From contig CAVPSB010000030.1 of NCBI GenBank assembly GCA_963708025.1, forward strand, positions 32,001 to 96,000: a stretch of 64,000 bases of DNA, written 5' to 3'. Source of the stretch: an uncultured Candidatus Rokubacteria bacterium (GTDB lineage: Bacteria > Methylomirabilota > Methylomirabilia > Rokubacteriales > DASRDR01). The position numbers and the translations under genes are program-made. Below are positions 14,657 through 35,407 of the stretch, piece after piece. Every line of letters starts with the position of its first letter. The first letter of the stretch is position 1. A model generated the notes under the pieces. That model was not told where the DNA came from and did no database searches. It worked only from the letters and a program-made list of their open reading frames with translations.

Positions 14657-15424
14657 TCATCGTCCGGGCTCGCGGAAGCGGTATCCAACCCCGCGCACGG
14701 TCTCGACATCGGGCGGAGGCAGCTTCACGCTCAGGAACTTCCCGCGCAGCCGGGCTAGGTGGACGTCGATGGTGCGGGGCTCCACGAAGCCGTCCCGCCC
14801 CCACACCCGATCGAGCAGCTCCTCCCGCCCGAAAACCCGCCCCGGCTCCGCCGCCAGGGTGGCGAGCAGAGCGAACTCCTTGGGGGTGAGCGGCACCGGC
14901 CGGCCCTTCAGCGTGACCTCGAACCGGCGCCGATCGATCGCGAGGTCGCCCACCTGCAGGTGGGCCGTCTTCTCCCCGGGGTCCGCGCCGGCGCTCCGCC
15001 GGATCACCGCCCGGATCCGGGCGACCAGCTCGCGGACCGCGAACGGCTTGGTGACGTAGTCGTCGGCGCCCATCTCGAAGCCCAGCACCTTGTCCCCCTC
15101 CTCCACCCGTGCCGTCACGATGATCACGGGGATGGCGCGGGTCGCCGGGTCCTGCTTGAGCCGGCGGCAGACCTCCCAGCCGTTGAGCTGGGGGATCATG
15201 AGGTCGAGGAGAATCAGGTCGGGGGCACCGTCGTGCGCCTGCCGGAGGGCCTCGGCGCCGTTGGCCGCCTGGAGGACCTCGTAGCCTTCTTTGATGAGAT
15301 TGTACCGGATCAGCACCGCGACGTCGGGCTCGTCCTCCACCACGAGGATCCGGCCCGCCTGCCGCCGGGCCGTGACGGCGCCGCTACCACCGTTCGTCCG
15401 GCTCGCCTCCCCCAGGCTCTGCAT
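14657..15424 (-). CDS. phoB: PhoB/OmpR-family response regulator
   Basis: REC (VVEDE, LLDLMIP, DYVTKPF) plus wHTH (LTPKEF, RTIDVH, TVRGVGY); directly upstream of pstS. Confidence 0.85.
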   Translation of the reverse strand: MQSLGEASRTNGGSGAVTARRQAGRILVVEDEPDVAVLIRYNLIKEGYEVLQAANGAEALRQAHDGAPDLILLDLMIPQLNGWEVCRRLKQDPATRAIPVIIVTARVEEGDKVLGFEMGADDYVTKPFAVRELVARIRAVIRRSAGADPGEKTAHLQVGDLAIDRRRFEVTLKGRPVPLTPKEFALLATLAAEPGRVFGREELLDRVWGRDGFVEPRTIDVHLARLRGKFLSVKLPPPDVETVRGVGYRFREPGR

Positions 15425-15434
15425 CACCGGGGGT

Positions 15435-18563: not shown

Positions 18564-20644
18564 CACCGGACGGGCTCGTCAACCGGGAGATGTCCTGGCT
18601 GGAGTTCAACCGCCGGGTCCTGGAGGAGGCGCAGGACGAGAGCGTGCCGCTCCTGGAGCGGGTGAAGTTCCTGTCGATCTTCAGCTCGAACCTCGACGAA
18701 TTCTTCATGATCCGGGTGGCGGGGCTCAAGCGGCAGGTCCACGCCGGCGATCACGAGCGGGGATTGGATGGGCTGACCCCGGCCGAGGCCATGGCCGCCG
18801 TCGCGGTGCGCACGCACGAGCTGGCCGACGAGCAGCACCGTTGCTTCCTGGAGGACATCCAGCCCCGGCTCGCCGCCGAGGGGATCCGGATCCTCCGGCC
18901 CAAGGAGATCACCGAGGCGCAGCACGGGTTCCTCGACGGGTACTTCCGGCACACGCTGCTCCCGATCCTGACGCCGCTGGCGATCGACCCCGGGCATCCG
19001 TTCCCCTACCTCGGCAACCGCTCGCTGGTCCTGGTGGCCTCTATCCGGCCGGTGGCCGCCTCGGCCCTGCCCCGGACCACGCTGGCGGTCGTCCACATCC
19101 CCGGCCAGGTGGTGCCGCGCTTCGTCGCCCTCCCCGGGCCGGCCGGCCAGCACGCCTTCATGCTGCTGGAAGACGTGATCCGGCTGCACCTGCCGAGCCT
19201 GTATCACGGCTACGAGATCCTCTCCTGCCACGCCATCCGCGTGACGCGCGACGCCGAGATCGAGCTGCCGCGGGGCCGCATCCAGGACCTCATGACCAGC
19301 ATCGAGGAGAGTCTGCGGGAGCGGCGCATGGCGACGGCGGTGCGGCTGCAGTACGAGGCCGACCTGCCGGCGGGGGTGCTGGCGACCCTGGTTGACGAGC
19401 TGGAGCTGGGCCCCGAGGACTTGTACGAGGGCGAGGGGTTCGCGGCCTTTTCCGACCTCATGCAGCTCTACGCGGCGGTGGACCTCCCACGCCTCAAGGA
19501 CCGCCCGCTGCCGCCCCACCCGGTGCCGGCCTTCGAGGCGGCGCCCGATCTCTGGGCGGCCATCCGGGAGGGCGACGTCCTCGTCCACCACCCCTACCAG
19601 CCGTTCGACGCCGTGACACGCTTCGTCCGGGATGCCGCCGTCGATCCCCGGGTGCTGGCCATCAAGATGACGCTCTATCGGGTGAGCCCGACCTCCCCCA
19701 TCGCTCAGGCGCTCACGCTGGCCGCGGAGAAGGGCAAGGAGGTCGCGGTGCTCGTCGAGCTGCGGGCGCGCTTCGACGAGGAAGCCAACATCCGGTGGGC
19801 GCGGGCGCTGGAGGAGGTCGGCGCCCACGTCGTCTACGGCCTCGTCGGCTTCAAGACCCACTGCAAGGCGTGCCTGGTCGTCCGCCAGGACGCCGATGGG
19901 ATCCGCCGCTATTGCCACCTGGCGACGGGCAACTACAACGTCCGTACCGGCGGGCTCTACTCCGATCTCGGGCTCTTCACCTGCCGCGAGTCGTTCGGCG
20001 AGGACCTCACCGAGCTGTTCAATCTCCTCACGGGCTACACGCACCCCCGCGGCTTCAACCACCTCATCGTCGCGCCCTTCCAGCTCCGCGACGCCGTCAT
20101 CGAGCGCATCCGGCGGGAAGCCGAGCACGCGCGGGCCGGCCGGCCGGCCCGGCTCATCGCCAAGATGAACAGCCTGGTCGATGTCAAGCTCATCGAGGAG
20201 CTGTACGCGGCGAGCCAGGCCGGGGTCGAGACCGACCTGATCGTGCGGGGCATCTGCTGCCTGCGACCCGGGGTCCCCGGCCTCTCCGACCGGATCCGGG
20301 CCATCTCCATCATCGACCGCTTCCTCGAGCACGCGCGGATCTTCTACTTCGAGAACGACGGGACGCCCGAGTATCTCCTGGCGTCGGCCGACTGGATGCC
20401 CCGCAACCTCGACAAGCGGGTCGAGGTCGCCTTCCCGATCCTGGATCCCCGCCTGCAGGCGCAGATCCGGCAGATCCTGGACGTCCAGCTCGCGGACACG
20501 GTCAAGGCGCGGGAGATCCTGCCCGACGGGCGGTCGCGGCGGATCGCCCACGAGGGGAGCTCGCCGCTCCGGTCCCAGGAGCGGCTGTACGAGCTGGTCG
20601 GCGCCCTGGGCTCGGCTCCGGAGCGGCGGGTCACCGAAACGTAA
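18560..20644 (+). CDS. ppk1: Polyphosphate kinase 1
   Basis: NREMSWLEFNRRVL, NLDEFFMIRV, HHPY, KMTLYR, ELRARFDEEAN, KTHCK, TGNYN, SADWMPRN. Confidence 0.97.
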   Translation: MTPDGLVNREMSWLEFNRRVLEEAQDESVPLLERVKFLSIFSSNLDEFFMIRVAGLKRQVHAGDHERGLDGLTPAEAMAAVAVRTHELADEQHRCFLEDIQPRLAAEGIRILRPKEITEAQHGFLDGYFRHTLLPILTPLAIDPGHPFPYLGNRSLVLVASIRPVAASALPRTTLAVVHIPGQVVPRFVALPGPAGQHAFMLLEDVIRLHLPSLYHGYEILSCHAIRVTRDAEIELPRGRIQDLMTSIEESLRERRMATAVRLQYEADLPAGVLATLVDELELGPEDLYEGEGFAAFSDLMQLYAAVDLPRLKDRPLPPHPVPAFEAAPDLWAAIREGDVLVHHPYQPFDAVTRFVRDAAVDPRVLAIKMTLYRVSPTSPIAQALTLAAEKGKEVAVLVELRARFDEEANIRWARALEEVGAHVVYGLVGFKTHCKACLVVRQDADGIRRYCHLATGNYNVRTGGLYSDLGLFTCRESFGEDLTELFNLLTGYTHPRGFNHLIVAPFQLRDAVIERIRREAEHARAGRPARLIAKMNSLVDVKLIEELYAASQAGVETDLIVRGICCLRPGVPGLSDRIRAISIIDRFLEHARIFYFENDGTPEYLLASADWMPRNLDKRVEVAFPILDPRLQAQIRQILDVQLADTVKAREILPDGRSRRIAHEGSSPLRSQERLYELVGALGSAPERRVTET

Positions 20645-20982: not shown

Positions 20983-21108
20983 GGACGGTCGTCGTGGCCC
21001 ACACGTTGCACTGCACGCGACAGGACATGCTCCGACGAGCTCCTAACTCGCGCGTCGCGACTGGCCCCGGCGGGCCGCAGTGTCGCATCGGCAGAGTCCG
21101 CCGTGACC

Positions 21109-21153
21109 GTAACAGTTTCGTAACTGGAAACCGCTCGTCCGGGCTCCTACACT
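21109..21153 (+). promoter_or_regulatory. Pho-box-like pair and -10 for the fez-like operon
   Basis: GTAAC-agtttc-GTAAC, 23 nt, TACACT; same layout at 44571-44614 and 53311-53356. Confidence 0.65.
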
Positions 21154-21248
21154 GACCGCGAGTGCCGTGCGCGACGCCGCCGGAGTCGCCGTTCGGCGGC
21201 ACGCGCATCCGATCGGATCACCACATCGCATGTCGGAGGGCTTCCCAG

Positions 21249-21548
21249 ATGGGGTTTCATCCTCTGTCTTTCTTTCTCGGTCTCGGTGCGGCCGCCGCGA
21301 TGCCGCTGCTGACTCGCGTGTTCCGTCCCGCCGCGGTCCAGATCGCGGTGGCCGGCATGGGCGTGTTCGACGAGGTCCGTCGGGTCCTCGCCGAGCAATT
21401 CGAGGCCATGGAAGACATCGCCGCCGAGGCACGGGCCAAGCGTGAAGAGAGCCTGGCCGAGGCCGCGATGGAACCGTCGAACGGCTCAGAGGCCGAGGCG
21501 GCGGTCGGACGCCCGAGTCGGCGGCCCCGGAGGCAGCGGACCGCATAG
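21249..21548 (+). CDS. DUF5132-like / FezA-like small protein
   Basis: RBS GGAGGG; hydrophobic FFLGLGAAAAMPLL, RPAAV, then helical EAMEDIAAEARA. Confidence 0.75.
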   Translation: MGFHPLSFFLGLGAAAAMPLLTRVFRPAAVQIAVAGMGVFDEVRRVLAEQFEAMEDIAAEARAKREESLAEAAMEPSNGSEAEAAVGRPSRRPRRQRTA

Positions 21549-21550: not shown

Positions 21551-22051
21551 GTGGCGACCCTCCAGGTCGCCCACGACATTCCCGGGAGACTCCGCCTCCG
21601 CCTGCGCGCGGCCGTCGAGGGGGACAGCCTGGCGGCGGCGATGCGCGAGCATCCCGGCGTGACGGACTGCGTGTGGGCGGCCCGCACCGGGAGCCTGCTC
21701 CTCCACTACCGTCCGCAGGTGACGAGCGGGACGCTCCTCCGCGACGCCGTGGCGGCCCGAACCGGTCTGTCGCCGGCCGGCCCGGACGGCGCACCGGCGA
21801 CCAGCGCCCGGAACGGCGAGCCGCCCCAGCTGGCCACTGCCATCACCCAGGGCATGACCGACCTGAACGCTCAGGTGACGCAGGTGACGGGTGGCGCGCT
21901 CGATCTCCGCACGCTCCTGCCGCTCGCGCTGGGGGCATGGGCGCTCGCCGAGATCTTCCGGGGGCGGGCCGGACCGATGGCCTGGTCAACGGCCCTCTGG
22001 TACGCCCATGGCCTGTTCCGCGACTACAACCTGCCCGGCGGCGAGCGGTAG
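21551..22051 (+). CDS. HMA2-domain membrane protein (FezC-like)
   Basis: HDIPGRLRLR...RTGSLLLHY, C-terminal DLRTLLPLALG...WSTALWYA. Confidence 0.8.
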   Translation: MATLQVAHDIPGRLRLRLRAAVEGDSLAAAMREHPGVTDCVWAARTGSLLLHYRPQVTSGTLLRDAVAARTGLSPAGPDGAPATSARNGEPPQLATAITQGMTDLNAQVTQVTGGALDLRTLLPLALGAWALAEIFRGRAGPMAWSTALWYAHGLFRDYNLPGGER

Positions 22052-22055: not shown

Positions 22056-24189
22056 GTGACGGGCCGGGTCGCCCACTCGGTCCGGGGTCGGCTCCGGCTC
22101 CGGTATCCGCCCGATTGGCTGCGGCCGCGCCAGGCCGCGATCGAGGGCGAGCTGGCCCGCGTCCCCGGGGTGCGTGGGGTCACCGCGAGCGGCGTCACGG
22201 GCAGCGTCGTGGTCAGATACGACCCGGCCCGCACCGCCGAGCAGGTCCTGGTCAACACGCTGTCCGCGATGCACGGGGGATCCCCCCCCGCCGCGCCGAC
22301 CTCGAACGGAAGGCACACGGTCACGGCGGCCGTCGGGACTCACGCCGCCCCTGCTCCCGTTCCTGGCCGCCAGCGGCATGTTCGCGGCGACCTTCCTGCC
22401 GCTCCCTGGCCCTGTCCTGGCGGGACTCACCCTCGGCTCGGGCTGGCCACTCATCCGGCGCGCGGGGCGAACCCTGGCGCGGGACGGTCGCCTCAACGTC
22501 GAGGTGCTCGACGCGGCGACGCTCGTCGTGCTCGCCATCCGCGGCAACTACCGCGCGGCCGCCCTGCTCGTGTGGCTCCTGTCGGCCGGCCAGTACGTCC
22601 TGGACAGCACCGTCGTCCGGATCCGCCGGTCCATCCGCGACCTCCTGGCTTCCCCGGCCGATCCGGTCTGGCGCGAAGACGGCGGAGAGCGCACGCAGGT
22701 CCCGATCGGCGCGGTCCAGGCGGGCGACACGATCGTGCTGGCCACGGGAGAGCGGGTCCCGGTGGACGGCACCGTCGTCCACGGCGAGGCGCTGATCGAC
22801 CAGCAGCGGGTCACGGGGGAGGGTCTGCCGGTCGAGCGGGTGGCCGGTGACCGCGTGTACGCCTCGACGATGGTCGAGGACGGCGAGATCGCCGTCCGAG
22901 TCGAGCGGGTCGGCATGGAGACCTCCGTCGGCCGGATCATCGAGGCGGTCGAAGGGGCGGAAGGCGAGAAGCCCGAGCTCCAGCTCTTCGCCGAGGAGCT
23001 GGCCGACCGGCTGGTGCTGCAGACGGTCGGCCTGGCGGCGCTGGCATCCGCGGCGACACGGAGCCTCGATACCGGGATCGCCATCCTCGTCGCCGACTAC
23101 GGAACACCCGTGCGGGTCGCGATTCCCACTGCCGCCATGGCGGCGCGGATCCGCGCCGCGCGCGCCGGCATCCTGTTGAAGGGGCCCGGCGTCCTCGAGC
23201 GGCTGGCCCGGGTCAACACGGTCGTCTTCGACAAGACGGGAACCCTCACCCTCGGCGCGCCACAGGTCACCCGCGTGGCGAGCTACGACCCCGCGCTCGA
23301 TCCGGACGAGATCGTCCGCCTGGCGGCCGCCGCCGAGCGGGGATTCCGGCATCCGGTGGCCCGAGCCATCGTGCGGCTCGCCACCGAGCGGCGACTGCCC
23401 GTCCCCCGGCGGACGGAGACCGAGCTCCGGATGGGTCTCGGCGTCGGCGTCCGGGCCGACGGCCGCCACGTCCTCGTGGGCAGCCGGCGCTTCATGGAGT
23501 CGCACGGCGTCCGGCTGGACCGGGCGGCGGATGACGAGGCGGCCAGCCACCGGGATGGCGGCGCCCCGACCTTCGTCGCGGTGGACGGCCAGCTGGCCGG
23601 GCTCCTCCGGCTGCAGGACGAGCTGCGGCCCGAGGCGCCGGACGCCGTGCTCGCGCTCCGGGCCCGCCGGATGCGGAACGTGATCATGGTCTCCGGCGAC
23701 CACGCCGAGCCGACGCGGGTCATCGCCGAGTCCCTCGGCGTCCGGCACTACTACCCGGACCTCCTCCCCGACGAGAAGGCCGAGCTCATCCGGAAGCTTC
23801 GCGCCGAGGGTCGGGTCGTCGCGATGGTGGGCGACGGCGTGAACGACGCCCTGGCCCTCCACCAGGCCGACGTCGGGATCGCCGTGCCGGGAGGCGCCGA
23901 GGTCGTGGCCGAGGCGGCCGGCGTCGTCCTCCTGGGGGGCGGCCTGGACAAGGTCGTCCAGGGTCTCGACATCGCCCGGGAGACCATGGTCGTGTTCCGG
24001 CGGGTCGTGGACGTCGCAGCCCAGGTGAATCTCGGCGTGATCGGCCTGGCGTCGGTGGGCCTGGCGGGCCCGGTCACCTCGATCCTCCTGAGCAACGGAG
24101 CGGTCGTCGGGGTGGCGCTCTACACGCTGATTGGAGCCCCGTCCGTGGGCAATGCCGGGCCGGACCGGGCCCGGGCGGGGTCACGGTGA
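22056..24189 (+). CDS. P1B-type ATPase, P1B-6/FezB-like, with HMA2 N-terminus; +1 frameshift near the C8 tract at 22282-22289
   Basis: HSVRGRLRLR...TGSVVVRYD in one frame; VTGEGLP, ADYGTPVRVAIP, DKTGT, HPVA, GDGVND in the next frame; removing one C joins them. Confidence 0.85.
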
Positions 24190-24233: not shown

Positions 24234-24276
24234 GTCGTGCAGGAAGGATACCCTTGGCAAAGGGGGGCCTGCCTGT

Positions 24277-24495: not shown

Positions 24496-27490
24496 ATGTC
24501 CGCCCCATCTCCTGTCCGACCCGCCGGAGGCACCGCCCCGGTGACAGCTCTCTGCGTCGCCGTCCCCGGGCGCGCCCGGCTCCGTGTCGAACGGGTTGCG
24601 AAACGGGAGTGCGGTCGCCCGGCAGCTCGAGACTCGCCTCCATGGTCATCAGGCGATTGCCGCCGTTCAGGCGAACCCGCTCACCGGCAACCTGCTCGTC
24701 CTGTTCGACCCGGCCCGGCTGACCGTGCGGGAGCTGATCGCCGAGGTCGTGCGATCCCGGGCTCCGGCGCGTCGCCGCCGCAACGGGCGAGGCGGCCGCG
24801 TCACGGCCCCGCGGTCGGCGCCGCCCGACGGGCCGGCGTGGCATGCCCTGCCCGCCCGCGCGGTCGTCAGGGAGCTGGAGGTCGCCCCCGACACCGGCCT
24901 GTCGGGCGTCGAGGCGGAGCGGCGGCTGGCCACGGTGGGACCGAACCGCCTGCCGGCGCCCGAGCCCCGGTCGGCGCTGGCCACGCTGTGGGACCAGGTG
25001 GCCTCGCTGCCGGTCGGGCTCCTCGCCGGAGCCGCGGCGCTCTCCCTCGCCGGCGGCGCCGTGTTCGACGCCCTCGTCATCCTGGGCGTGGTCGGGATCA
25101 ACGCGGCGGTCGGCTACGTCACCGAGCGCCGGGTGGATCGCATCCTCGGCGGCCTGCGGAATGCGACGGTGCCGACGGCGCTCGTCCGCCGCGATGGGAA
25201 GGAGACCTTCCTGCCGGCGGCGGCCCTCGTCCCCGGCGACGTCGTCGTCCTCCAGGCCGGCTACGACGTGCCCGCCGACGGTCGCGTGATCGCGGCCGAC
25301 CGGCTCGCGCTCGACGAATCGGCGCTGACCGGTGAGAGCCTGCCGGTGCCGAAGGCGGCCGGCACGGTCTACGCCCCGGAGACACTCCTCGCCGACCGGG
25401 CGAACATGGTCTACTCGGGCACCAGTGTCGCCGAGGGCTCGGGCCTGGCTCTCGTCACCGGCACCGGCGTCGCCACCGAGATGGGACGCATCCGCCAGCT
25501 CATCGCCGCGGCGGTGGCGCCTCCGACTCCACTCGAGCGCGAGCTGGACCGGATGGGCCGCCGGCTGGTCGGCCTCTGCCTCGGGCTTTCCAGCGTCGCG
25601 CTGGGGCTCGGGCTGCTCCGGGGTGTGGCGGCCCTCGAGATGCTGCGGACCTCGATCTCCCTCGCGGTGGCGGCGGTGCCCGAGGGCCTGCCGGCCGTCG
25701 CGACCACCACCCTGGCGCTCGGCATGCAGCGCATGCTGCGCCGCAACGCGCTCATCCGGCGTCTCTCCGCCGTGGAGAGCCTCGGCGCCACGACCGTCAT
25801 CTGCGTCGACAAGACGGGCACGCTCACCGAGAACCGGATGAGCGTGCACGCCTGGCACCTGGGCGGGAGCGATCTCGTCGTGAACGGCCGCGCGGCCGAG
25901 CTGTCCGACCCGCGACTCCGCTGGGCGCACATGATCGGCGTGCTGTGCAACGAGGCGGACCTGACCCGGCAGCAGGGCGGAGGCTGGGAGGTGAACGGCA
26001 GCGGCACCGAGGGCGCGCTGCTGGCCGCCGCCCGGCAAGCGGGGCTCGACTACCGGCGCCTGCGGGAGGATCACCCGCTGGTGAGCCTGCGCCCTCGGCT
26101 CGCGGACGAGAACTGGATGGCGACGGTTCACGAGGCCGGGCCCGGTCGCCGGCTGATGATGGTCAAGGGGGCACCGGAGGAGGTCGTGCGGCTCTGCGCC
26201 CGACGCCTCGACGGGGCCACCGCGCCGGGCCTGGACGACGACGCCCGGCGCAGCATCCTGGAGGCGAACGCCGCCCTGGCGAACCAGGGCATGCGCGTGC
26301 TCGGGCTCGCGTTCAAGGAGATCCCGGCCGCGGCGAGCCCGAGCTACGACGACCTCGCGTGGGTCGGGCTGGTCGGACTCCGGGATCCGATTCGCGAGGG
26401 CGTGCGCGAGGCGATCGCGGCCTGCCAGCGGGCGGGCATCCGCACCATCATGATCACCGGCGACCAGAGCCTCACCGCCCTGGCCGTTGCCCGCGAGCTC
26501 GACCTCGTGCGCAACGGACAGATGCGGGTGGTGGAGGCCTCGCAGCTCGGCGGGGCGTCGGAGGCCGCCGTGCGGAATTTCGCGCGGGACGTGGCGGTCT
26601 TCGCCCGCGTCTCGCCGGCCCACAAGTACCAGATCGTCCGGGCGCTCCAGGCCGAGGGCGAGATCGTCGCCATGACCGGTGACGGCATCAACGACGCGCC
26701 CGCCCTGAAGGCAGCCGACATCGGGGTGGCGATGGGCGCCCGGGGGACCCAGGTCGCCCGGGACCTGGCCGACGTCGTGCTGCTCGACGACAATTTCGGC
26801 TCCATCGTCGGCGCCGTGGAGCAGGGCCGGACGATCCACGCCAACGTCGGCAAGGCGCTCCGCTTCCTCCTGGCGACCAACTTCAGCGAGATCCTGGTGA
26901 CCATCGGCGCGCTGGCGCTCGGGATCGCCCGTCCGCTGACGGCCATCCAGCTCCTCTGGATCAACCTGCTCTCCGACGTGGTGCCGGCGCTGGCGCTCGC
27001 CGTGGAGCCGGCGGAGCCCGACATCATGGCGCGGCCGCCCCGGGATCCGGCGGCGCCGGTCCTGTCCGGGGATGCCCTCCTCCGGATCGCCGGCGACGGC
27101 GCGCTGCTCTCGGCCACGACGCTCGGCGCGTACGGCGCGGCACTGGCCCGCCACGGCGCGGGCCCTCAGGCCGCCAGCGTGGCGTTCGCCACCCTGGCCT
27201 CGGGCCAGCTCCTGTACGCGCTCACCTGCCGCTCCGAGCACCGGCCCGCGGTCACGGGCCTCCATCGGAGCCCCGCGCTGCTCGGTGCGGTGGGCGGCAC
27301 CGTGGCCCTCCAGGTCGCCGCGGTCGCCGTCCCGTCGCTGCGACGTCTCTTGGGGATCGCGCCCCTCGGACCGGGTGATTGGGGCCTGGTGGCGGCCGGG
27401 GCGGCGCTTCCGCTCCTGGTGACGGAGGTAACCAAGGCGCTCCGCGCCCGGCCGGTGTTGACCGCCGAGCCGACGAGAAGGAGGCGATGA
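24496..27490 (+). CDS. P2A (Ca2+-type) P-type ATPase with HMA2 N-terminus, copy 1; +1 frameshift at about 24591
   Basis: AVPGRARLRVE|GLRNG...ANPLTGNLLVLFD, TGES, AVPEGLP, DKTGT, KGAPE, GDGIND, LATNFSE, WINLLSD. Confidence 0.9.
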
Positions 27491-28096
27491 ATGGCGACCA
27501 AGCGAGAGGACCAGTCGCGGGAGACCACGCAGGACGGCGGCGCGATGCACCGCGCCATCCGCGGCACCATCACCGGCAGCGAGATCATCTCGGTGGGGGT
27601 GCTCAACCTGGTGCGGAGCACGCTCGTGACCGCGCTGTCCGGCGCCCGGGACGTCGGAAGCGAGGTGGGGATCACCGCGGTGGCGACCGTCCGCGGGACC
27701 ATCAAAGCCGCCCACGAGATCGGCGGCGACCTCGGCATGGTGGCCCAGTCCGCCGCTCGCGGCGCGGTCCGGGCCGCCCAGGAGGTTGGCGGCGACGTAG
27801 CCGGCGCGGCCCGCCGGGCAGTCGAGGGCACGATCGAGGCAGCGCGCGAGATCGGCGGCGACGTGGTCGGCGCGGCCCGCAAGGCCGCCGAGGGCGCGAT
27901 CGACGCCGCCGACCGGATCGGCTCGGCCACCGGCCGAGCAGTGCGACGGACGGTCGGCGTGGCGGTGCGGCAGGCCCGGGGGGTCAGGCCCGCCCGGGCG
28001 ACGCGAAAGCAGGCGCTCCGCGCGCGGCCGGTGCGACTCCGCCGCCCCGGGCGCCCGCGGCCGAAGGGCGGTGGGAGGGGGGCGAGGGCAGAATAG
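27491..28096 (+). CDS. 22-aa Ala/Gly helical-repeat protein with Arg-rich tail, copy 1
   Basis: RBS AGGAGG; five repeats of xAAxE(I/V)GGD(L/V)xxAAxxAxxG(T/A)(I/V); paralogs at 30991(-) and 44321(-). Confidence 0.85.
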   Translation: MATKREDQSRETTQDGGAMHRAIRGTITGSEIISVGVLNLVRSTLVTALSGARDVGSEVGITAVATVRGTIKAAHEIGGDLGMVAQSAARGAVRAAQEVGGDVAGAARRAVEGTIEAAREIGGDVVGAARKAAEGAIDAADRIGSATGRAVRRTVGVAVRQARGVRPARATRKQALRARPVRLRRPGRPRPKGGGRGARAE

Positions 28097-28253: not shown

Positions 28254-28557
28254 CTACCCGAGGCGGCGGGCGGCTCGTTTCAGCGCCTCGACCCGGTCCT
28301 CACGCTCCCGCGGCACGTCGAGATCGGTTGGTCCGAAAAGGCCGTAGGCCGCCAGCCGCGCGTAGAAGCTCGTCGGAGTAGCCGATGTCGCGGATGGACC
28401 CGCCGCGCCGAGGACCGCCACGACGAGCGCGCTGGCGAGGCCCGCCCCGTGCCCGCCCGGGAGAGCGTCACCCGCGGCATCGCCGCCGGATCCGACCGGG
28501 CCGACGATCCGCCTGCCGCCGGGCAACGTCCACTCCGGGACCGTCATCCGGTTCTCG
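28254..28557 (-). pseudogene. Deleted duplicate of the ATPase2-metK operon (three joined fragments)
   Basis: 28254-28370 matches 31027-31143; 28370-28409 matches about 32007-32045; 28410-28557 matches 33783-33930. Confidence 0.85.
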
Positions 28558-28876: not shown

Positions 28877-30628
28877 ATGGCGTCCACCGTCCGCCCACTG
28901 CTCCACGCCCTCCTCGCTGCTGTTGTACCCCGGCGGCTCTGCGCGGTCTTGCTGGTCCTGGCCGGCGTAGTGCTCGCCGGGGTGGCCCCGGCAGCCCCGC
29001 GGGTCATCGTCATCTCGCTCGACGGCGCCACCCCGCGCTTCGTGGACGACTACCTGGCCCGGGGGGTGCTCGAGCGGGACAGGGGACTCGGCCTCCTCAG
29101 GCGGCACGGCATCACCGCGCGGCAGAACGTGACGATCAACCCCTCGCTGACCGCGCCCGGCCACATCGCCATCGCCACCGGCTCCATCGCCGCTCACAAC
29201 GATATCGCCGCCAATACCTTCCACCTGCAGGCCAGCCCGTTCACGGCGACCATCAGCGGGTTCTCGGCTCCGATCGGCGGCTACGACATTCACGGGCCAG
29301 CGGAGGCGGCCGAGATCACGGCGGAGCCCTTGTGGCTGCCGCTGCGGGCGGCCGGCAAGGTGGTGGCGACCGCCACCTTCCCCGGCGGCGATGGCCTCGA
29401 CATCCGTGTGCCCGGACGCTCACCGAGCCCGATCGTCCAGCCGGCCGCCGAGCGCACCGTGGACTACACGGTTCCCTTCGGTGCGTTCGCCGGCGTCGGA
29501 GCCCAGGGCTTCAGTCTGACCGCGGCCGACTTCTCGGTCGCTCCCAGTTCGACCACCGGCCAGCTCGCCGCCGCCGGTCGGACGTCCTTCAGCCCGACAC
29601 TCCAGAAGGTGACCCCCCTCGAGACATTCACGGTGGGCGGCGTGAGCTACCAGATCCAGGTGGCGGCACTCGACACGACGAATGACGGCCTGGTCAACTA
29701 TGACATGCTGGTGTTCTTCGATACGGCTCACGGGATCCCGCCCGGCCCCTTCAACCCTCCGTCCACCGGACCGGCCTACGTCCGCCCGGCGGACAAGCGC
29801 TCGGGCCCCTTCTACCTGGAGGGCAGCAGCACCAGAGCGGGCACGGGCTTCTACGTGAGCCGGCTCGAGCCCGACCTTTCCAGCGTGCGGATCGCCCGGT
29901 ACTCTGCCAACGCCATCCCCCGCAACGCCGCCGTCCTCGGCGACGTGGACGACGTCAACAACCACGCCGGATTCTGGGCGCCCCAGCCCGACTTCCGGAT
30001 CCCCGAGCGACTGAGCCCGGGTTTCGATCCCTTTCCCGACCTCGAGTTGGAAGCGATCTACCAGGATCTCGTGCGACTGTTCGTGGACTACCAGACCCGG
30101 GTGGGGCTTCGGGCCATCGAACGCTTTCCCGACGCCGACCTGATCATGATCTACATCGAGCAGCCGGACGGATCGGGCCACCAGTTCCTGCTGACCGATC
30201 CCCGCCAGCCCACCGACCCCCGCAACCCGGACTCGATCGGCGGCGGGCAGGACCCGGACAAGGTGGCTCGCTACGCCCGCTACCACGAGGCCGCCTACCG
30301 GGCGGCCAGCACCGCCGTGCAGCGGATCATCGAGGCGGTCGGCACCGATCGCCACGGCATGCCGAGGAGCAACATCATCGTCGTCTCCGACCACGGCTTC
30401 GAGATCTTTCACACTGCGGTCAGCATGATGAACCTGCTCGTCAGCCGCGGCTTCGACCCGACCAAAGTCCGGGCGGTGACATCGGGTCCGGCTGTCAACG
30501 TCTACGTCAACCTGATCGGACGCGGCCCGAGCGGTACCGTGACCCCAGCCGAATACCTGGTCCTCCAGGGCCAGATCGCCGACGCGCTGGCGGAGCTCGT
30601 GGACACCAACCCGAATTACACCAACGGC
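28877..30628 (+). pseudogene. Secreted alkaline phosphatase/nucleotide pyrophosphatase-family protein, 3' truncated (ORF reads on to 31120 as antisense)
   Basis: ISLDGA, PSLTAPGH (Thr nucleophile), QPDGSGH, VSDHG; after DTNPNYTNG the sequence becomes the antisense of the repeat gene. Confidence 0.8.
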
Positions 30629-30991
30629 CTCGACCGCCGTCGCCACCGCGGCCTTGCTCGCCGTCCGGGCAACCTCCGCGAGGTCGCCGCCCACCTCCTG
30701 GGCTGCCTGGATGGTGCCTTGCACGGCATGCTTCGCGGCGAGTCCGACGTCACCTCCGATCTCGGACGTCGCCCGGATGATGCCGCGCACCGCCGTGATC
30801 CCGACCGTCGCCACGAGGCCTCCCAGTTCGGCCACGCCCGACAGGCTCGTGAGCAGGCTGTTCCGGGCCAGGTGGATCACACCGGCGGCGACGATCTCCG
30901 CGCCGCTGATCGATCGTTGGAGGGCCGAGGATCCGTTGTCGGCTTCGCTCGATGGTCGGGGTCGCGTTCCGGTCCTCCGCTTCGTGGTCAT
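30626..30991 (-). pseudogene. 22-aa helical-repeat protein, copy 2, 3' truncated
   Basis: MTTKRR...GAEIVAAGVIHLARNSL...EIGGDVGLAAKHAVQGTIQAAQEVGGDL; no own stop, runs into the phosphatase antisense. Confidence 0.8.
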
Positions 30992-31026
30992 GATGCGTCC
31001 CCTGTCTCGGATCCTTCCGCCCAAGG

Positions 31027-32250
31027 TTACCCGAGGCGGCGGGCGGCTCGTTTCAGCGCCTCGACCCGGTCCTCACGCTCCCACGGCACGTCGAGATCGG
31101 TTCGTCCGAAGTGGCCGTAGGCTGCCAGCCGCGCGTAGAAGCTGCCTTCGTGCCGGATGGGCAGCTGGCGCAGGCCGAGGTGGTGGACCACCGCCGCCGG
31201 CCGCAGGTCGATGGTCTCCTGCAGGACGCGCGCGAGGTCGGTGTCGGACGCCACGCCGGACCCGTACGTCTCGACCGACACGGCGAGCGGCCGGGCCTGG
31301 CCGATCGCGTAGGCCAGGTGCACCTCGCACTCCCGGGCCAGCTCGGCGGCGACGAGGGTCCGGGCCGCGTAGCGGGCGACGTACGCCCCGAGGCGATCGA
31401 TGTGATCCGGGTTCTTCCCGGACAGCGCGCCGCCGCCGTGTCGCGTGTATCCCCCGTAGGTGTCCACCATGTTCTTCCGGCCGGTGAGCCCCGCATCCCG
31501 ACGGGGGCCTCCGACGAGAAAGGCGCCGCCGGGGTTGACGAAGAGCCGGGCCTCGGCGTCGAAGCTCAGCTCGGTGCGATCCAGGGCCGGACGCAGGACC
31601 GCGTCCCGGATGTCGCCCTCGAGCCGGCGCCGGGTGGCGGTGGACGTGCCCGGCGCGCCGACCGCGGTCGTGTGCTGGACATTGATCACGACCGTGTGAA
31701 TCCGCACGGGACGCCGATCCTCGAACTGCACGGCCACCTGGACCTTGCCGTCCGGCCCCAGGTACGGCACGGCCTTCTCGCGCCGCGCCTGATCGAGCCG
31801 CCGGGCCAGCCGATGGGCCAGGGCGATGGGCGCCGGCATCCGCTCGGGTGTGTGCGTGCACGCATACCCGAAGACGGACGCCTGGTCCGAGGCCACGCCG
31901 GCGTCGAGCTCCTCCTCCGTCGACTCGACGTCGGGAGCCGGATCGCGGCCGGGACGGTGGGCGAAGTTGGTGATGACGCTCGCGTTCTCGGGGTCGAAGC
32001 CCTGCTCGTCGGAGTAACCGATGTCGCGGATGACCTGCCGCGCCACGCCGGCCGGGTCCACGCTCACCGCCGAGGCCGCCGTGACCGCCAGGAACACGAG
32101 CCCCGTGGCCACGGCACATTCGGCGGAGACCCGGGCTTCCGGGTCGAGATAGAGGAACGCGTCGATCACGGCGTCGGAGATCTGGTCGCACATCTTGTCG
32201 GGGTGCCCCTGGGTGACCGACTCCGAGGTGAAGACGCTCGTCTTGCTCAC
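31027..32250 (-). CDS. metK: Divergent methionine adenosyltransferase (MetK paralog)
   Basis: FTSESVTQGHPDK, DGKVQV, DAGLTGRK, HGGGALSGK, YGHFGR, PWE; coupled to ATPase2 by a GTGA overlap. Confidence 0.88.
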   Translation of the reverse strand: MSKTSVFTSESVTQGHPDKMCDQISDAVIDAFLYLDPEARVSAECAVATGLVFLAVTAASAVSVDPAGVARQVIRDIGYSDEQGFDPENASVITNFAHRPGRDPAPDVESTEEELDAGVASDQASVFGYACTHTPERMPAPIALAHRLARRLDQARREKAVPYLGPDGKVQVAVQFEDRRPVRIHTVVINVQHTTAVGAPGTSTATRRRLEGDIRDAVLRPALDRTELSFDAEARLFVNPGGAFLVGGPRRDAGLTGRKNMVDTYGGYTRHGGGALSGKNPDHIDRLGAYVARYAARTLVAAELARECEVHLAYAIGQARPLAVSVETYGSGVASDTDLARVLQETIDLRPAAVVHHLGLRQLPIRHEGSFYARLAAYGHFGRTDLDVPWEREDRVEALKRAARRLG

Positions 32251-35240
32251 GGGCCTGGCCTCCTTCCGGCGTCGCCCGGCGCGGGCCGGGACTTGAGCAT
32301 CTCTCGCGCGAGCAGCGGGGCCACCGCGCCCGCCGCGACGACCCCCCAGGCGCCGGCGCCGAGGGGGGACGTGCCGAGTAGCCGGCGGAGCGCCGGCACC
32401 GTGACGGCCCCGACCTGAAGCGCCAGCGTCCCCGCAAGCGCCCCGATCAGGGGCGGGTTCTGCGAAAGGCCGCTCAGCGCCGGGCGCGTCTCGGACCGAC
32501 ACGCCAGCGCGTACAGGAGCTGGGCGGTGGTCAGGGTGACGAACGGCACGGTGGAGCCGGCCGCGCCCGGCCGGCCACCGGCGATCGCGTGCGCTCCGAG
32601 GGCCGAGGCGGTCATCACGGCCGCGTCCACGGCGATCCGCCGCATGTCCGCGGTCGAGAGAAGCGGCTCGTCGCGTGGCCCGGGGGCTCGCCGCATCACG
32701 TCCGGCTCGGCCGGCTCCATCGCGAGCGCGAGAGCCGGGAACACGTCGGACAGGAGGTTCATCCACAGCAGCTGCACCGCGGTCAAGGGTCGGGCGATGC
32801 CCAGGGCCATGCCGACGACCGTGAGTAGCACCTCGCCGAGGTTGGTGGCGAGCAGGAAGCGCACGGCCTTCCGGACGTTGGCGCGGATCGTGCGGCCCTG
32901 CTCCACCGCGCCCACGATCGAGCCGATGTTGTCGTCCAGCAGGACGACGTCGGCCAGGTCCCGGGCCAGTTCCGTCCCGCCCACCCCGATGGCGACGCCG
33001 ACGTCCGCCGCGCGGAGGGCGGGTCCATCGTTGATCCCGTCACCGGTCATCGCCACCACCTCGTCGTCCGCCTGCAGGGTCTGGACGATGCGGTACTTGT
33101 CGGCGGGCGACACCCGGGCGAAGATGTCCACCTCCCGCGCCAGCCCCCGGAGGGCTTCCGGCGGGAGCTGGGCGATCTGCGCCGCCTCGGCCACCCGCAG
33201 CTCCCCGTTCCGGTCGAGGCCGAGCGCCCGCCCGACGGCGATCGCGGTGGGGCTCTGGTCGCCGGTCAGCATGACGACCCGGATGCCGGCCGCCCGGCAG
33301 GCGTTCAGGGCCTCCCGCACGCCGGGTCGGATCGGGTCCACCATCCCGACCAGACCCGCCCAGACGAGCTGGTCGATCGCGGGCGGCTCGGCTGCCATCC
33401 CGTCGTCGTCGCGATAGGCCAGGCCGAGGACCCGGAGGGCGTCGCTGGCCATGCGGGCATTGGTGCCGAGGATCGCCCGGCGGTCGCTCGCGGTCAGCAC
33501 CCGCGAGTCGCCGTTCCGGCCAGCAACGTGGCTGGCGAGTCGCAGGACCTCCTCCGGCGCCCCCTTGACCGCGATAAGCCGATGGCCGTTATCGGTCGAG
33601 TGCACCGTCGCCATCCAGTTCTGGCCGACGGCCCTGGGCCGGACCCCGATCCGCGGGTGGCGGGCTCGCAGCGCCCGGCCATCCACGCCGAGGGCGCGGG
33701 CGGACTCCAGGAGGGCGACCTCGGTCCCGCTGCCCAGGATCGTGCCGCCCTCGGCCTCCGCGACGAGCTCGGCCTCGTTGCAGAGGACCGCCACGACGAG
33801 CGCGCTGGCGAGGCCCGCCCGGTGCCCGCCCGGGAGAGGGTCACCCGCGGCATTGCCGCCGGATACGACCGGGCCCACGATCCGCGTGCCGCCGGGCAGC
33901 CTCCACTCCTGGACCGTCATCCGGTTCTCGGTGATCGTGCCCGTCTTGTCGACGCAGATGACCGTCGTCGCTCCGAGGCTCTCGACGACCTCGAGCCGCC
34001 GGACGAGCACGTTCCGCCTGAGCATCCGCTGCATCCCGAGGGCGAAGGTCGTCGTCGCGACGGCGGGCAGACCTTCCGGCACGGCGGCGACGCCGAGGGC
34101 GATGGCCGTTCTCACCATCTCCAGCGCGGAGATGCCGCGCAGCAGGCCAAGCCCGAGGACGGCGGCGCAGAGCGAGACCGTGATCCCGACGAGGGTCCGG
34201 CCCATCCGGTCGAGCTGCCGCTCGATCGGCGCCGGTGGTGGCTCGACCCCGGCGACCAGGGCGCGCACCCGGCCGAATTCCGTGCGACTCCCGGTCCCGG
34301 TCACGACCGCGAGGCCAGCGCCCTCGCTGACCACGGTTCCGGCGTAGACCATGTTGGCCCGGTCGGCGAGCGGGGTGCCTTCGGCGTGGACGTGGTCAGC
34401 CCGCTTGGCCACCGGCAGGCCTTCCCCGGTCAGAGCGGACTCGTTGACGCTCAGCCCGCCCGTCACATCCACCAGGCGGCCGTCGGCGCCGACGTCGTGT
34501 CCCGCCCTGAGGATCAGGACGTCCCCAGGCACCAGCGAGGCCGTGGAGACGGTGCGCTCGCGACCATCACGCCGAACCAGCGCCACCGGGTGCGTCAGGC
34601 GCTGCAGGGAGCTGAGGATGCCCTCGACGCGGCTCTCGGTCGCGTATCCGACCAGCGCGTTGGCGGCGACGACACCGAGAATCACGATCGCCTCGAAGGG
34701 GGCTCCGCTCACCAGGGACAGGCCGGCGGCGCCGGCCAGGAGCGCCACCGGCAGGGAGGTGACCTGTCCGGCCAGGATCGCAAGGCCCGAGCGAGGAGTC
34801 GGGGCGGGGACACGATTCGAACCGAACCGCGCGAGCCGGGCCTCGGCCTCCTCGCCGGTCAGGCCGACGGACGGCAGCGTGGCCAGGCGCGCCACGACGT
34901 CGGCGGCCGTCGTGGCATGCCAGCGGTCGCCGTCGCGCTCGAGTATCTCGTGATCTCCCCCGCGGGTCGGCGGTCGCGACCGCCGCCGCGGCGGCCCCCC
35001 GTCGCGATAGCGACGCAGCTCGGCCGCGACCTGGCGGGGGCTGAGGGCCTCGGCGTCGAAGAGCACGAGGACGCTGCCGGTCAGCGGGTTGGCGTGAACT
35101 TCGCGGATGCCGACCCGGATCGCCAGCCGGTCAACGATGCGCCGCGCGACGTCGGGACGGTGGCGCAGACCCTCGACCCGGGCGCGGATTCGTCCACGCA
35201 CGGCGACCGAGAGGAAGATCACAGATGGCTGGGCCGTCAT
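32247..35240 (-). CDS. P2A (Ca2+-type) P-type ATPase with HMA2 N-terminus, copy 2
   Basis: AVRGRIRARVEGL...ANPLTGSVLVLFD, TGEGLP, AVPEGLP, DKTGT, KGAPE, GDGIND, LATNLGE, WMNLLSD. Confidence 0.93.
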   Translation of the reverse strand: MTAQPSVIFLSVAVRGRIRARVEGLRHRPDVARRIVDRLAIRVGIREVHANPLTGSVLVLFDAEALSPRQVAAELRRYRDGGPPRRRSRPPTRGGDHEILERDGDRWHATTAADVVARLATLPSVGLTGEEAEARLARFGSNRVPAPTPRSGLAILAGQVTSLPVALLAGAAGLSLVSGAPFEAIVILGVVAANALVGYATESRVEGILSSLQRLTHPVALVRRDGRERTVSTASLVPGDVLILRAGHDVGADGRLVDVTGGLSVNESALTGEGLPVAKRADHVHAEGTPLADRANMVYAGTVVSEGAGLAVVTGTGSRTEFGRVRALVAGVEPPPAPIERQLDRMGRTLVGITVSLCAAVLGLGLLRGISALEMVRTAIALGVAAVPEGLPAVATTTFALGMQRMLRRNVLVRRLEVVESLGATTVICVDKTGTITENRMTVQEWRLPGGTRIVGPVVSGGNAAGDPLPGGHRAGLASALVVAVLCNEAELVAEAEGGTILGSGTEVALLESARALGVDGRALRARHPRIGVRPRAVGQNWMATVHSTDNGHRLIAVKGAPEEVLRLASHVAGRNGDSRVLTASDRRAILGTNARMASDALRVLGLAYRDDDGMAAEPPAIDQLVWAGLVGMVDPIRPGVREALNACRAAGIRVVMLTGDQSPTAIAVGRALGLDRNGELRVAEAAQIAQLPPEALRGLAREVDIFARVSPADKYRIVQTLQADDEVVAMTGDGINDGPALRAADVGVAIGVGGTELARDLADVVLLDDNIGSIVGAVEQGRTIRANVRKAVRFLLATNLGEVLLTVVGMALGIARPLTAVQLLWMNLLSDVFPALALAMEPAEPDVMRRAPGPRDEPLLSTADMRRIAVDAAVMTASALGAHAIAGGRPGAAGSTVPFVTLTTAQLLYALACRSETRPALSGLSQNPPLIGALAGTLALQVGAVTVPALRRLLGTSPLGAGAWGVVAAGAVAPLLAREMLKSRPAPGDAGRRPGP

Positions 35241-35271
35241 CGCTACGGGCGGCTCTGGCTCCGTCCACGAC

Positions 35272-35314
35272 ACCCTACCAGTGGTTCGTTACCATGACGC
35301 TACGACAACGTTAC
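35272..35314 (-). promoter_or_regulatory. Pho-box array and -10 for ATPase2-metK-repeat operon
   Basis: GTAAC-N6-GTAGC-N6-GTAAC-N10-TAGGGT. Confidence 0.75.
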
Positions 35315-35407
35315 GAAACCTCGAGTCCGGAGGAAGGACCAGCTTGACCTATCATGGGCCCTGGGGTGGTGCCCAGCGAGTCCTCGGTGCAGGCTCGGGA
35401 AGGATGC

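Follow-up and report, generated by a model that had tools for sequence, protein, structure and literature searches.

Within the 64,000 nucleotides of the Candidatus Rokubacteria contig analysed here (the window), a gene resembling metK adjoins the gene of a P-type ATPase, which raises the question of whether its product still makes S-adenosylmethionine (SAM) or has taken on another task. To our knowledge, methionine adenosyltransferase (MAT) is among the most conserved enzymes, and we know of hardly any description of a divergent MAT paralog with a new job. The features discussed below are collected in Table 1.

Table 1. Coordinates of the MetK-like gene, its partner pump and the surrounding features in the window.
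Feature	Position	Strand	Remarks
PstS-like gene, adjoining the PhoB-like regulator	13741-14517	(-)	
PhoB-like response regulator	14657..15427	(-)	best NCBIfam match PhoB, below its cut-off
Polyphosphate kinase 1 (PPK1)	18497..20644	(+)	
Perfect direct repeat CGTAAC-AGTTT-CGTAAC	21108..21124	(+)	upstream of first module gene
Small hydrophobic protein, first module gene	21162..21548	(+)	FezA-like by position
Free-standing HMA_2 protein (FezC-like)	21551..22051	(+)	GRLRLRLR motif, C-terminal hydrophobic region
P1B-type ATPase	22174..24189	(+)	TM4 VADYGTP, lacking Cys; differs from the related FezB signature D[Y/F]SCA
P2A ATPase 1	24584..27490	(+)	58-60% identical to ATPase 2; no MetK-like gene after it
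Full-length phasin-like EIGGD-repeat protein (REP)	27491..28096	(+)	
Decayed remnant of the ATPase 2 / MetK-like operon, in three pieces	28255..28557	(-)	93-96% identical
Type I phosphodiesterase / nucleotide pyrophosphatase (NPP)	28877..30626	(+)	true coding part seems to stop near 30626
5' part of phasin-like EIGGD-repeat gene (REP')	30620..30991	(-)	cut off near 30620-30630
MetK-like paralog gene	31027..32250	(-)	407 aa; MAT fold, rebuilt methionine pocket (T55, R98, R237, H269), shortened gating loop
Translational coupling element	32247..32267	(-)	GTGA start/stop overlap 32250-32247 and Shine-Dalgarno GGAAGGAGG 32267-32259
P2A (Ca-type) P-type ATPase 2	32247..35273	(-)	N-terminal HMA_2 / R-rich (RGRIRAR) domain
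Imperfect direct repeats CGTAAC-N5-CGTAGC-GTCAT-GGTAACG	35287..35315	(-)	upstream of ATPase 2; candidate operator

The 407 codons of the MetK-like frame are stop-free in translation, and a separate database gene call gives a protein of identical length. All three S-AdoMet_synt domains (N, M and C; PF00438, PF02772 and PF02773) were found above their Pfam cut-offs, solved MATs were matched with a phmmer E-value of 2.5e-107, and the AF2 model (pLDDT 82.9) matched MAT structures with a Foldseek TMq of 0.81-0.86, the canonical MetKs of E. coli and of mycobacteria (3rv2/3s82) having the same three-domain fold (TMq 0.85). We considered whether the gene might be a pseudogene and rejected this on account of its unbroken frame, its conserved catalytic residues and a mean column identity of 72% among 48 members. 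On TIGR01034, the metK equivalog model (EC 2.5.1.6), the protein scored 393.5 bits, above the cut-off of 309.4, and canonical copies scored 553-590 bits; this model does not tell the two classes apart, and relatives of the MetK-like protein carry the public annotation 'methionine adenosyltransferase'.

The first-pass annotation had taken the gene for a paralog, and indeed it is one, because another contig of the same genome has a canonical metK, scoring 590 bits on TIGR01034, with ahcY behind it. A canonical-class metK was likewise present in all eight of the carrier genomes examined (8/8, the copy in G142 being in pieces), so that the MetK-like gene, which adjoins a pump gene where canonical metK adjoins ahcY, always co-exists with the canonical one. 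Its product is 46-50% identical to canonical MetK proteins, and the family includes a 388-aa subgroup. When genome contigs were searched with it, canonical MetKs predominated and only 1 of the 80 loci (L016) was a paralog. In the tree, the ATPase-linked paralogs form a monophyletic, long-branched family, a single clade (118/118, SH-like support 0.973) on a stem of 0.74 substitutions per site.

We then compared 120 paralogs, the nearest database relatives, with 88 canonical MetKs, taking E. coli MetK from NC_000913.3 as the alignment reference for the residues. It had been proposed from this one sequence that the methionine side of the site was lost and the triphosphate site kept, and this holds family-wide. 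Every residue listed as kept is present (H14, D16, E42, D118, D163, K165, D238, R244, K245, K265 and D271), and every listed change was seen (E55 to T, Q98 to R, the QSPDI loop gone, K269 to H, GAGDQG to VASDQA and R229 to A); to these we add G237 to R, which was absent from the earlier list. At 78 positions conservation reaches at least 95% in paralogs and canonical MetKs alike, among them H14, D16, E42, D163, K165, F230, D238, R244, K245, K265 and D271; the ATP, PPPi and metal residues H14, D16, E42, K165, R244, K245, K265 and D271 are present both here and in at least 95% of the 120 members. The HPDK motif and the PPPi loop GLTGRK are shared with canonical MetK as well. Unlike canonical MetK, the MetK-like protein is without E55, Q98, the gating loop, K269 and GAGDQG, and has gained R237 and H269. 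Both K269 to H and G237 to R were found in 120/120 paralogs, and E55 was retained in 0/120 (T or N instead); G54 was replaced by V in 119/120, G120 by A in 118/120 and G117 by S or T in 113/120, while gating-loop positions 102-106 were deleted in 110-120 of the 120 and the GAGDQG motif reads xAS[DHQ]QA across the family. Since the same substitutions recur in 120/120 of the nearest database relatives, the pattern is not a matter of chance. The new invariant residues in the former methionine pocket (R237, H269, V54, A120 and L262) speak for a new constraint rather than for decay.

What these changes might mean for catalysis can be read against the MAT literature. According to the excerpted text of one article (PMC6850014), the methionine nitrogen contacts Glu70 (E55) and Asp258 (D238), the methionine oxygen contacts Gln113 (Q98), the ligand of adenine N1 is S247 in human MAT and T227 in E. 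coli, and the gating loop normally closes over the substrates; in an excerpt of another (PMC3793261), acid/base catalysis of SAM formation is assigned to H14. The earlier contrast, built on E55, Q98 and K269, stands as far as the methionine-side losses are concerned, but Q98 is a weak marker: the human MAT2A variant Q113A, at the same position, keeps 75% of its activity (PMC6850014, same excerpt), so that Q98 to R alone means little. The same excerpt states that SAM formation and PPPi hydrolysis use distinct parts of the MAT pocket. In the MAT1A patient variants Gly257Arg and Lys289Asn, SAM formation is lowered and phosphatase activity unaffected (PMC6850014, citing another paper), and in gating-loop mutants of E. 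coli MetK the kcat for SAM falls more than 200-fold with PPPi hydrolysis unchanged (PMC6850014). Gly257 and Lys289 of human MAT1A correspond to G237 and K269 of E. coli MetK, which are the same two positions changed in the MetK-like family. The patient variants are single deleterious mutations, whereas the changes seen here are fixed across phyla and accompanied by about 30 further family-specific ones, and Lys289Asn introduces Asn where the family has His. The earlier statement that the protein is not a SAM synthetase gains outside support from both the patient variants and the loop mutants, and it is as something we infer that we carry it forward. The family may be regarded as a naturally fixed counterpart of two substitutions from human disease in which SAM synthesis and triphosphate hydrolysis come apart, and as a test case for splitting the bifunctional MAT site.

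The partner pump, ATPase 2, starts at GTG 35273 or at ATG 35240 (the database call has 997 aa). Among solved structures it is closest to LMCA1, the Ca2+-ATPase of Listeria (6zhf, 473 bits), from which it differs by an additional HMA_2/R-rich domain of about 115 aa at the N-terminus; it falls below the NCBIfam cut-offs for the PMR1, SERCA and PMCA types. Judged by this relative it is a Ca-type P2A pump, the transported ion being predicted only by class. All 46 pump sequences compared share PEGLP (399-403), DKTGT (442-446), N811, E814, N839 and D843, and across the pump family PEGLP, DKTGT, KGAPE, TGDGxND, N..E in M5 and N..SD in M6 are invariant or nearly so; the M4, M5 and M6 residues are, we take it, those at the Ca-site positions of SERCA.

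Translational coupling of the two genes had been claimed at the outset and is well founded: the GTG start of the MetK-like gene (32250-32248) overlaps the TGA stop of ATPase 2 (32249-32247), with the Shine-Dalgarno sequence before it, and the pump lies upstream in 37/37 loci. These comprise 29/29 metagenome loci in which 150 nt or more precede the MetK-like gene, where the P2A pump was found directly upstream on the same strand (28 by tblastn and 1 by frame reading), and 8/8 genome loci, and nearly all of the loci have the start/stop overlap. Short ATPase matches in L099, L127 and L142 were considered as a separate small anchor protein, which we rejected as they are deletion/fusion junctions and frameshifted copies; the short match in L132 is just cut by the contig end. 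The pump itself often occurs alone, the MetK-like gene being present in only 7 of the 23 related genomes that have it. Because the other 16 genomes and the first module of the window do without it, the MetK-like gene is not needed for pumping.

Taken together, we think that the MetK-like protein is a triphosphate- or ATP-cleaving enzyme of the MAT fold, not the SAM synthetase of the cell, and an optional accessory of a ferrosome-like module, a reading to which we assign a probability of roughly 0.45. The MAT fold would have been neofunctionalised with its ATP-triphosphate, two-Mg2+ and K+ centre intact, and the rebuilding of the methionine pocket and gating loop (E55 to T/N, Q98 to R, G237 to R, K269 to H) would have given a cationic, more open site. 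Such a site may bind ATP or free tripolyphosphate or short polyphosphate and cleave the triphosphate chain to PPi and Pi without any SAM being made, with Arg237 and His269 occupying the place of methionine or SAM. The start/stop overlap would supply the enzyme and the Ca-type P2A pump in fixed proportion, and the enzyme would serve, as an optional soluble accessory, a module that would handle cations along with phosphate or polyphosphate. Several observations run against triphosphate cleavage: the TIGR01034 equivalog cut-off is still passed, D238, the main methionine amino-group ligand, is retained, as are H14 and the adenosine-holding F230 and D163, the residue corresponding to Q98 is dispensable for most of the MAT2A activity, and the pump family is mostly without the MetK-like gene.

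A pure PPPi hydrolase would have no need of D238, H14, F230 and D163, and the conservation is therefore explained just as well by transfer of the adenosyl group to another acceptor. The protein could be an adenosyltransferase for a different nucleophile, probably anionic and amine-free, which, held by R98, R237 and H269, would attack C5' of ATP and yield a 5'-adenosyl compound and PPPi. The residues that bind adenosine and cleave the C5'-O5' bond (H14, F230, D163 and D238) are kept in 118-120 of the 120 paralogs, the former methionine pocket holds its new invariant residues rather than drifting, and the loss of the acidic E55 with the gain of Arg and His would suit an acidic acceptor. We nevertheless consider this somewhat unlikely, as no candidate acceptor or enzyme using the product recurs among the neighbourhood genes examined, the adenine N1 ligand T227 is Gly in 111/120, the loop that closes over the substrates is deleted, and a literature search on MetK paralogs yielded no such 5'-adenosyl compound.

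The tight pairing with the pump would also agree with a regulatory subunit, non-catalytic or slow, which binds ATP/PPPi, docks on the P2A pump and adjusts the pump to the energy or phosphate state of the cell; the MetK-like gene never occurs without the pump in the 37 loci, its start overlaps the pump's stop in nearly all of them, and mammalian MAT catalytic subunits are described, in the excerpt of PMC6850014, as joining regulatory complexes (MATalpha-beta). Binding alone would not require the catalytic acid/base and the metal ligands to be as fully conserved as they are, though, and most pumps of the family have no such partner (16/23 genomes), which makes this quite improbable. Least probable is a true additional SAM synthetase isozyme, kinetically unusual and co-expressed with the pump. 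It would account for the TIGR01034 score, for the MAT fold (TM 0.85 to solved MATs), for the retention of D238 and H14 and for the public annotation of the relatives, but E55 is missing throughout the family, G237R and K269H, at the positions of the SAM-deficient human variants, are universal in it, the gating loop is deleted and every one of the 8 carrier genomes has a canonical metK.

The preferred reading, triphosphate cleavage as an accessory function, draws its context from a paralogous module in the window whose genes recur in L016, L096, L154 and L155, with a six-gene operon of the L016 / G012 type, and which, in its predicted gene content, resembles ferrosome (fez) clusters. These comprise the P1B-6 ATPase FezB, FezC, FezA and GxxxG proteins, and FezH; the fez description (10.1101/2020.01.10.902569) names N-termini rich in R, an HMA protein that has TM segments, and a P1B pump accompanied by another ATPase, the P1B-6 ATPase having the TM motifs D[Y/F]SCA and HNxxT. 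The module and fez have in common a small hydrophobic protein, an HMA-domain protein whose C-terminal part carries TM segments, a P1B ATPase together with another ATPase, and R-rich RxRxR motifs at the N-termini of several of the proteins. Motifs of the GRLRLR type were seen in the HMA_2 protein and in both the P1B and the P2A pumps, and none in the translation of the MetK-like protein. The small TM protein, conserved in 5 other loci, has GxGxxxA / GxG instead of a strict GxxxG. Against the likeness stands the TM4 motif of the P1B pumps, VADYG[TLQ][PA] in 5/5 of those from modules, in place of the fez-defining P1B-6 motif D[Y/F]SCA. Unlike fez, moreover, the module has a Ca-type P2A ATPase rather than a P1B as its second pump and additionally encodes a MetK-like enzyme and a phasin-like protein, and phosphate and polyphosphate genes are found nearby instead of iron genes. 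The hosts of fez are mainly anaerobes, whereas those of the module are soil bacteria labelled Gemmatimonadales, Terriglobales and Methylomirabilota; and ferrosomes are lipid-bounded metal-phosphate granules, whereas the module is known from its genes alone.

A more far-reaching view would place the MetK-like protein, as the soluble enzyme, in a so far undescribed system of soil bacteria that forms ferrosome-like organelles or granules under the control of phosphate status. The FezA-like and FezC-like HMA_2 proteins, the Cys-free P1B pump and the R-rich P2A pump would load cations into a compartment coated by the phasin-like protein, and the MAT site, locked by Arg237 and His269, would strip the triphosphate from ATP or trim polyphosphate and so feed a cation-phosphate mineral. 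We regard this as unlikely; if true, a MAT-fold enzyme would for the first time have been found in phosphate or biomineral chemistry, and a fez-type system for the first time around a calcium-type pump. Literature searches for MetK paralogs of this kind and for ferrosomes together with SAM synthetase found nothing relevant. The strict linkage to an R-rich Ca-type pump, the fez-like module and PPK1 beside it point to an unexplored system of cation-phosphate handling in Gemmatimonadota, Acidobacteriota and Methylomirabilota. Since public pipelines name the relatives 'methionine adenosyltransferase', metabolic reconstructions from soil MAGs may over-count metK.

Phosphate genes surround the locus. 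Besides those of Table 1, the window has an OprO/P-like fragment, and at other loci we found PhoX (L152 and L154), Phosphoesterase (L121), Metallophos (L117) and a PPK1-like match (L154). The earlier placing of the operon under a Pho promoter is not borne out by consensus scans: upstream of ATPase 2 neither the E. coli-type nor the Streptomyces-type Pho-box consensus had a match within 3 mismatches. Over the whole window, the E. coli-type scan gave 3 matches against 4.6 expected, which is at or near chance, and the Streptomyces-type scan gave 11 against 4.8 expected, none of them near the locus. Besides this phosphate-related neighbourhood there is a conserved direct repeat with an 11-bp period, CGT[AC]A[CT]-N5-CGT[AC]A[CT], common to the module promoters and the phoD promoter and absent upstream of pstS-like genes (5/5). 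From its sequence, the copy before ATPase 2 is a candidate operator for a regulator of the OmpR/PhoB type; further sites lie at 20630-20656 and 24201-24217.

The EIGGD-repeat genes REP and REP' resemble each other at the DNA level (27660-27796 versus 30683-30811), and the cut end of REP' abuts the 3'-truncated phosphodiesterase gene.

As the first-pass annotation had proposed, the gene at window 31027-32250 (-) is a divergent paralog of metK, since the same genome has, on another contig, a canonical metK that scores 590 bits on TIGR01034 and precedes ahcY. The window's MetK-like copy scores 393.5 bits, above the curated cut-off of 309.4, and the two metK classes also occur together in G012, G112, G194, G195, G196, G142 and the Terriglobia MAG G251 (553-590 bits for the canonical copies, 386-391 for the paralogs). 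A canonical-class metK is present in 8/8 genomes that carry the MetK-like gene, both copies being fragmented in G142, a 66%-complete assembly. The MetK-like frame is open throughout its 407 codons, equals in length a separate gene call in the database (P0002), contains all three MetK Pfam domains and matches solved methionine adenosyltransferases (MATs) with E = 2.5e-107. Its AlphaFold2 model (pLDDT 82.9), which is uncertain at 104-109, where a stump of the gating loop remains, and at 252-274, superposes with MAT structures at TMq 0.81-0.86. The GTG start (32250-32248) shares bases with the TGA (32249-32247) that ends the upstream ORF 32247-35273 (-), a P2A ATPase (ATPase 2), which bears out the translational overlap noticed earlier, and GGAAGGAGG is located 8 nt 5' of this start.

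When the protein was aligned with E. coli MetK (K-12 annotation; its numbering is used here) and with the canonical MetK of its own genome, the residues that had been listed by eye as kept (H14, D16, E42, D118, D163, K165, D238, R244, K245, K265 and D271) were all in place, and so were the listed changes: E55 to T, Q98 to R with a shortened loop, K269 to H, GAGDQG to VASDQA and R229 to A. We compared the best 120 database relatives of the protein (56-82% identical) with 88 canonical MetKs from many phyla. K269 is replaced by H and G237 by R in 120/120 relatives, E55 is retained in none (N 85, T 23, H 6, S 5, gap 1), and Q98 is R in 94 and still Q in 6. Other changes in the 120 are G54 to V (119), F262 to L (119), G120 to A (118), I246 to N/T/S (118), Q167 to L (115), G117 to S/T (113) and T227 to G (111), while gating-loop positions 102-106 are absent in 110-120 of them. 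D118 is retained solely in the window's own subgroup, most other relatives having H or Q. At least 95% conservation in both sets was found at 78 positions, among them every ATP/PPPi/Mg/K residue. A FastTree tree (LG+gamma, rooted on E. coli) was built from the 88 canonical sequences and 118 paralogs, two fragments shorter than 370 aa having been left out. It joins the paralogs in a single clade (SH-like 0.973), whose stem measures 0.74 substitutions per site and whose sister group is unreliable. The family is genuine and conserved, and public annotation gives it the wrong name; the source names of its members are Terriglobales, Gemmatimonadales and Methylomirabilota. It is also rare, its pattern being found in 2/41 relatives, in 7/251 genomes of the window's phylum (reversed control 0) and in one of 401 sampled genomes of the phylum of the Terriglobia MAG, which is the query genome itself; these tallies count the unpublished G038 as a non-carrier.

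For human MAT, the available text of PMC6850014 assigns binding of the methionine N to Glu70 (E55) and Asp258 (D238), of the methionine O to Gln113 (Q98) and of adenine N1 to Ser247 (T227), with Phe250 (F230) stacking on the adenine. It also describes patients' MAT1A variants, Gly257Arg and Lys289Asn among them, with reduced SAM formation and unaffected phosphatase activity, as well as E. coli gating-loop mutants in which the SAM kcat falls more than 200-fold and PPPi hydrolysis stays as before. Human G257 and K289 correspond to G237 and K269, so that the family-invariant R237 and H269 occupy the same two positions, where substitution reportedly splits the two MAT activities. These residues and the deleted gating loop weigh against SAM synthesis, to which one may oppose the Q113A mutant (Q98), reportedly still 75% active (PMC6850014), and the retention of F230, D163, D238 and H14, the last reported (as His29) to act as acid/base catalyst when SAM is formed (PMC3793261). 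On balance the loss of SAM synthesis appears well argued from these residues: the protein is very likely not a SAM synthetase, and true SAM synthesis would be highly improbable.

We favor, with a probability of roughly 0.45, a predicted hydrolysis of triphosphate/ATP-triphosphate or short polyphosphate that would serve a cation-phosphate module. The tripolyphosphatase of MAT is activated by SAM, and R237 would mimic the bound SAM. The conservation pattern does not discriminate between such a hydrolase and an adenosyltransferase that has acquired a new acceptor, and the retained H14, F230, D163 and D238 would suit adenosyl transfer too, which we regard as conceivable though rather unlikely. A role as a putative regulatory subunit seems doubtful at best.

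The closest solved relative of ATPase 2 is Listeria LMCA1 (473 bits); its top NCBIfam matches, the PMR1 and SERCA types, are both below cut-off, and it has an extra HMA_2 domain at its N-terminus. In an alignment of 46 pump sequences, the P-type motifs, PEGLP in M4, N811/E814 in M5 and N839/D843 in M6 are invariant and the N-terminus reads GRARLRV. A search with a family-specific DNA pattern (R237 plus H269) gave 48 metagenome loci. Among the 29 with at least 150 nt of 5' sequence, 28 have the pump C-terminus immediately before the MetK-like gene in the same orientation, in most cases with an overlap, and in the remaining one (L111, 173 nt upstream) a pump tail read by eye is encoded. The pump precedes the MetK-like gene in 8/8 genome loci. 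Pumps at least 52% identical are held by 23 of the 183 genomes of the window's order (counted from the table of matches), only seven of which have the MetK-like pattern, and ATPase 1, the window's other P2A pump, is directly followed by the gene for REP, a phasin-like 'EIGGD'-repeat protein, with no MetK-like gene between. The MetK-like gene implies the pump, but the pump does not imply the MetK-like gene.

Related loci L016, L096, L154 and L155 share a six-gene module in the order of genes 1 to 6 below. Its architecture resembles that of the ferrosome (fez) clusters. According to the available text of the fez preprint (10.1101/2020.01.10.902569), those clusters encode a P1B-6 pump marked by D[Y/F]SCA, in some cases a further ATPase, GxxxG proteins, and a FezC whose HMA domain is N-terminal and is accompanied by two TM segments; RxRxR motifs occur at the N-termini of the pump and accessory proteins. 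That text makes no mention of adenosyl- or phasin-type proteins. In contrast, the module's P1B pump does not fit the P1B-6 motif and its second pump is of the Ca type. The TM4 motif of the window's P1B ATPase (22174-24189 (+)), shared by its homologs in the four loci, has no cysteine or histidine at the usual CPC, SPC or SCA site.

Features of the window and of related loci (window positions unless a locus or contig is named)
Feature	Position	Strand	Remarks
PstS-like gene	13741-14517		
Direct repeats in the window	21108-21124, 20630-20656, 24201-24217, 35287-35315		
Direct repeats at phoD promoter	G000:C9:10844-10913		
Module gene 1			small TM protein
Module gene 2			HMA_2 protein, FezC-like; GRLRLR motif, hydrophobic C-terminal part
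Module gene 3			P1B ATPase; TM4 motif VADYG[TLQ][PA]
Module gene 4			HMA_2-P2A ATPase
Module gene 5			MetK-like gene
Module gene 6			REP, 200-230 aa; 22-residue 'EIGGD' repeats, basic tail
Module in L016	1680-9951		
Module in L096	17509-9084	-	
Window module without MetK-like gene	21162-28096	+	
Second, inverted unit	35273-30620	-	ATPase 2, MetK-like gene, truncated REP
PHA_gran_rgn gene (PF09650 / TIGR02610)	L100, L102, L104, L108, L110, L114, L115, L121, L127, L128, L134, L152, L156		convergent, just downstream of MetK-like gene
Mosaic remnant of ATPase 2 / MetK-like operon	28255-28557	-	three pieces, 93-96% identical

A weak profile signal (Phasin_2, E = 0.0057) and a weak nearest Atlas cluster (named phasin family, 0.93) are leads only to REP as a possible phasin. 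Of the 35 metagenome loci that extend 500 nt or more beyond the MetK-like gene, 11 have REP 3' of it, and every one of these belongs to the subgroup of 62-72% identity. In the subgroup of about 57% identity, where REP lies upstream of the pump, a PHA_gran_rgn gene converges on the MetK-like gene from downstream in 11/19 loci tested, as also happens at L156 and L152; the pump/MetK-like pair is thereby linked to another 'granule' protein family.

Near the module are a response regulator whose top match, PhoB, falls short of the cut-off (258.7 against 296.2 bits), PPK1 (polyphosphate kinase 1; 861 bits), an NPP phosphodiesterase gene and an OprO/P-type porin fragment. The PstS-like gene, the PhoB-like regulator and PPK1 (13741-20644) are just upstream of it, and a small hydrophobic ORF of about 70 codons (about 20693-20911 (+)) lies between ppk1 and the module. 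Elsewhere, PhoX was found in L152 and L154, a Phosphoesterase-family gene in L121, Metallophos in L117, a PLD-like gene in L133 and a PPK1-like match in L154. A Pho promoter had been suggested for the pump/MetK-like operon. Upstream of ATPase 2, two Pho box consensi gave no match with up to 3 mismatches. On the other hand, direct repeats CGT[AC]A[CT]-N5-CGT[AC]A[CT] with an 11-bp period, typical of OmpR/PhoB-type regulators, precede the module operons in six loci (both window units, L016, L154, L155 and, on the other strand, L096). Genome-wide, the strict pattern matches 17 times and its reversed control twice; the window's contig accounts for four of these 17 matches, and two flank the promoter of a PhoD gene that lies beside PhoX. 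The core of this repeat was found in 0/5 pstS-like upstream regions. The Pho idea is thus neither established nor ruled out.

Signs of decay and REARRANGEMENT were seen in the window and in L127, L099 and L142. One piece of the mosaic remnant was copied from ATPase 2 (33780-33930) and two from the MetK-like gene (32004-32044 and 31028-31143), and their identity indicates that part of the operon was duplicated and that this copy decayed recently. At about 30620-30630, the NPP gene (+) and the REP gene (-) that follows the MetK-like gene, which converge, are each truncated at the 3' end; this junction may have arisen by deletion, by rearrangement or in the assembly. Long ORFs at 28877-31120 (+) and 29420-31024 (-) each continue into the antisense of the other. 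In L127 (1-1170), an intact MetK-like gene is preceded by an in-frame fusion of an ABC-transporter ATPase with the final ~120 pump residues, and in L099 and L142 the MetK-like genes are frameshifted, with a REP-pump-fragment fusion; these three are decaying copies. The pump and/or MetK-like gene is split over frames in L154 (G195), L155 (G196) and L156 (G142), which could reflect either long-read indel errors or real decay.
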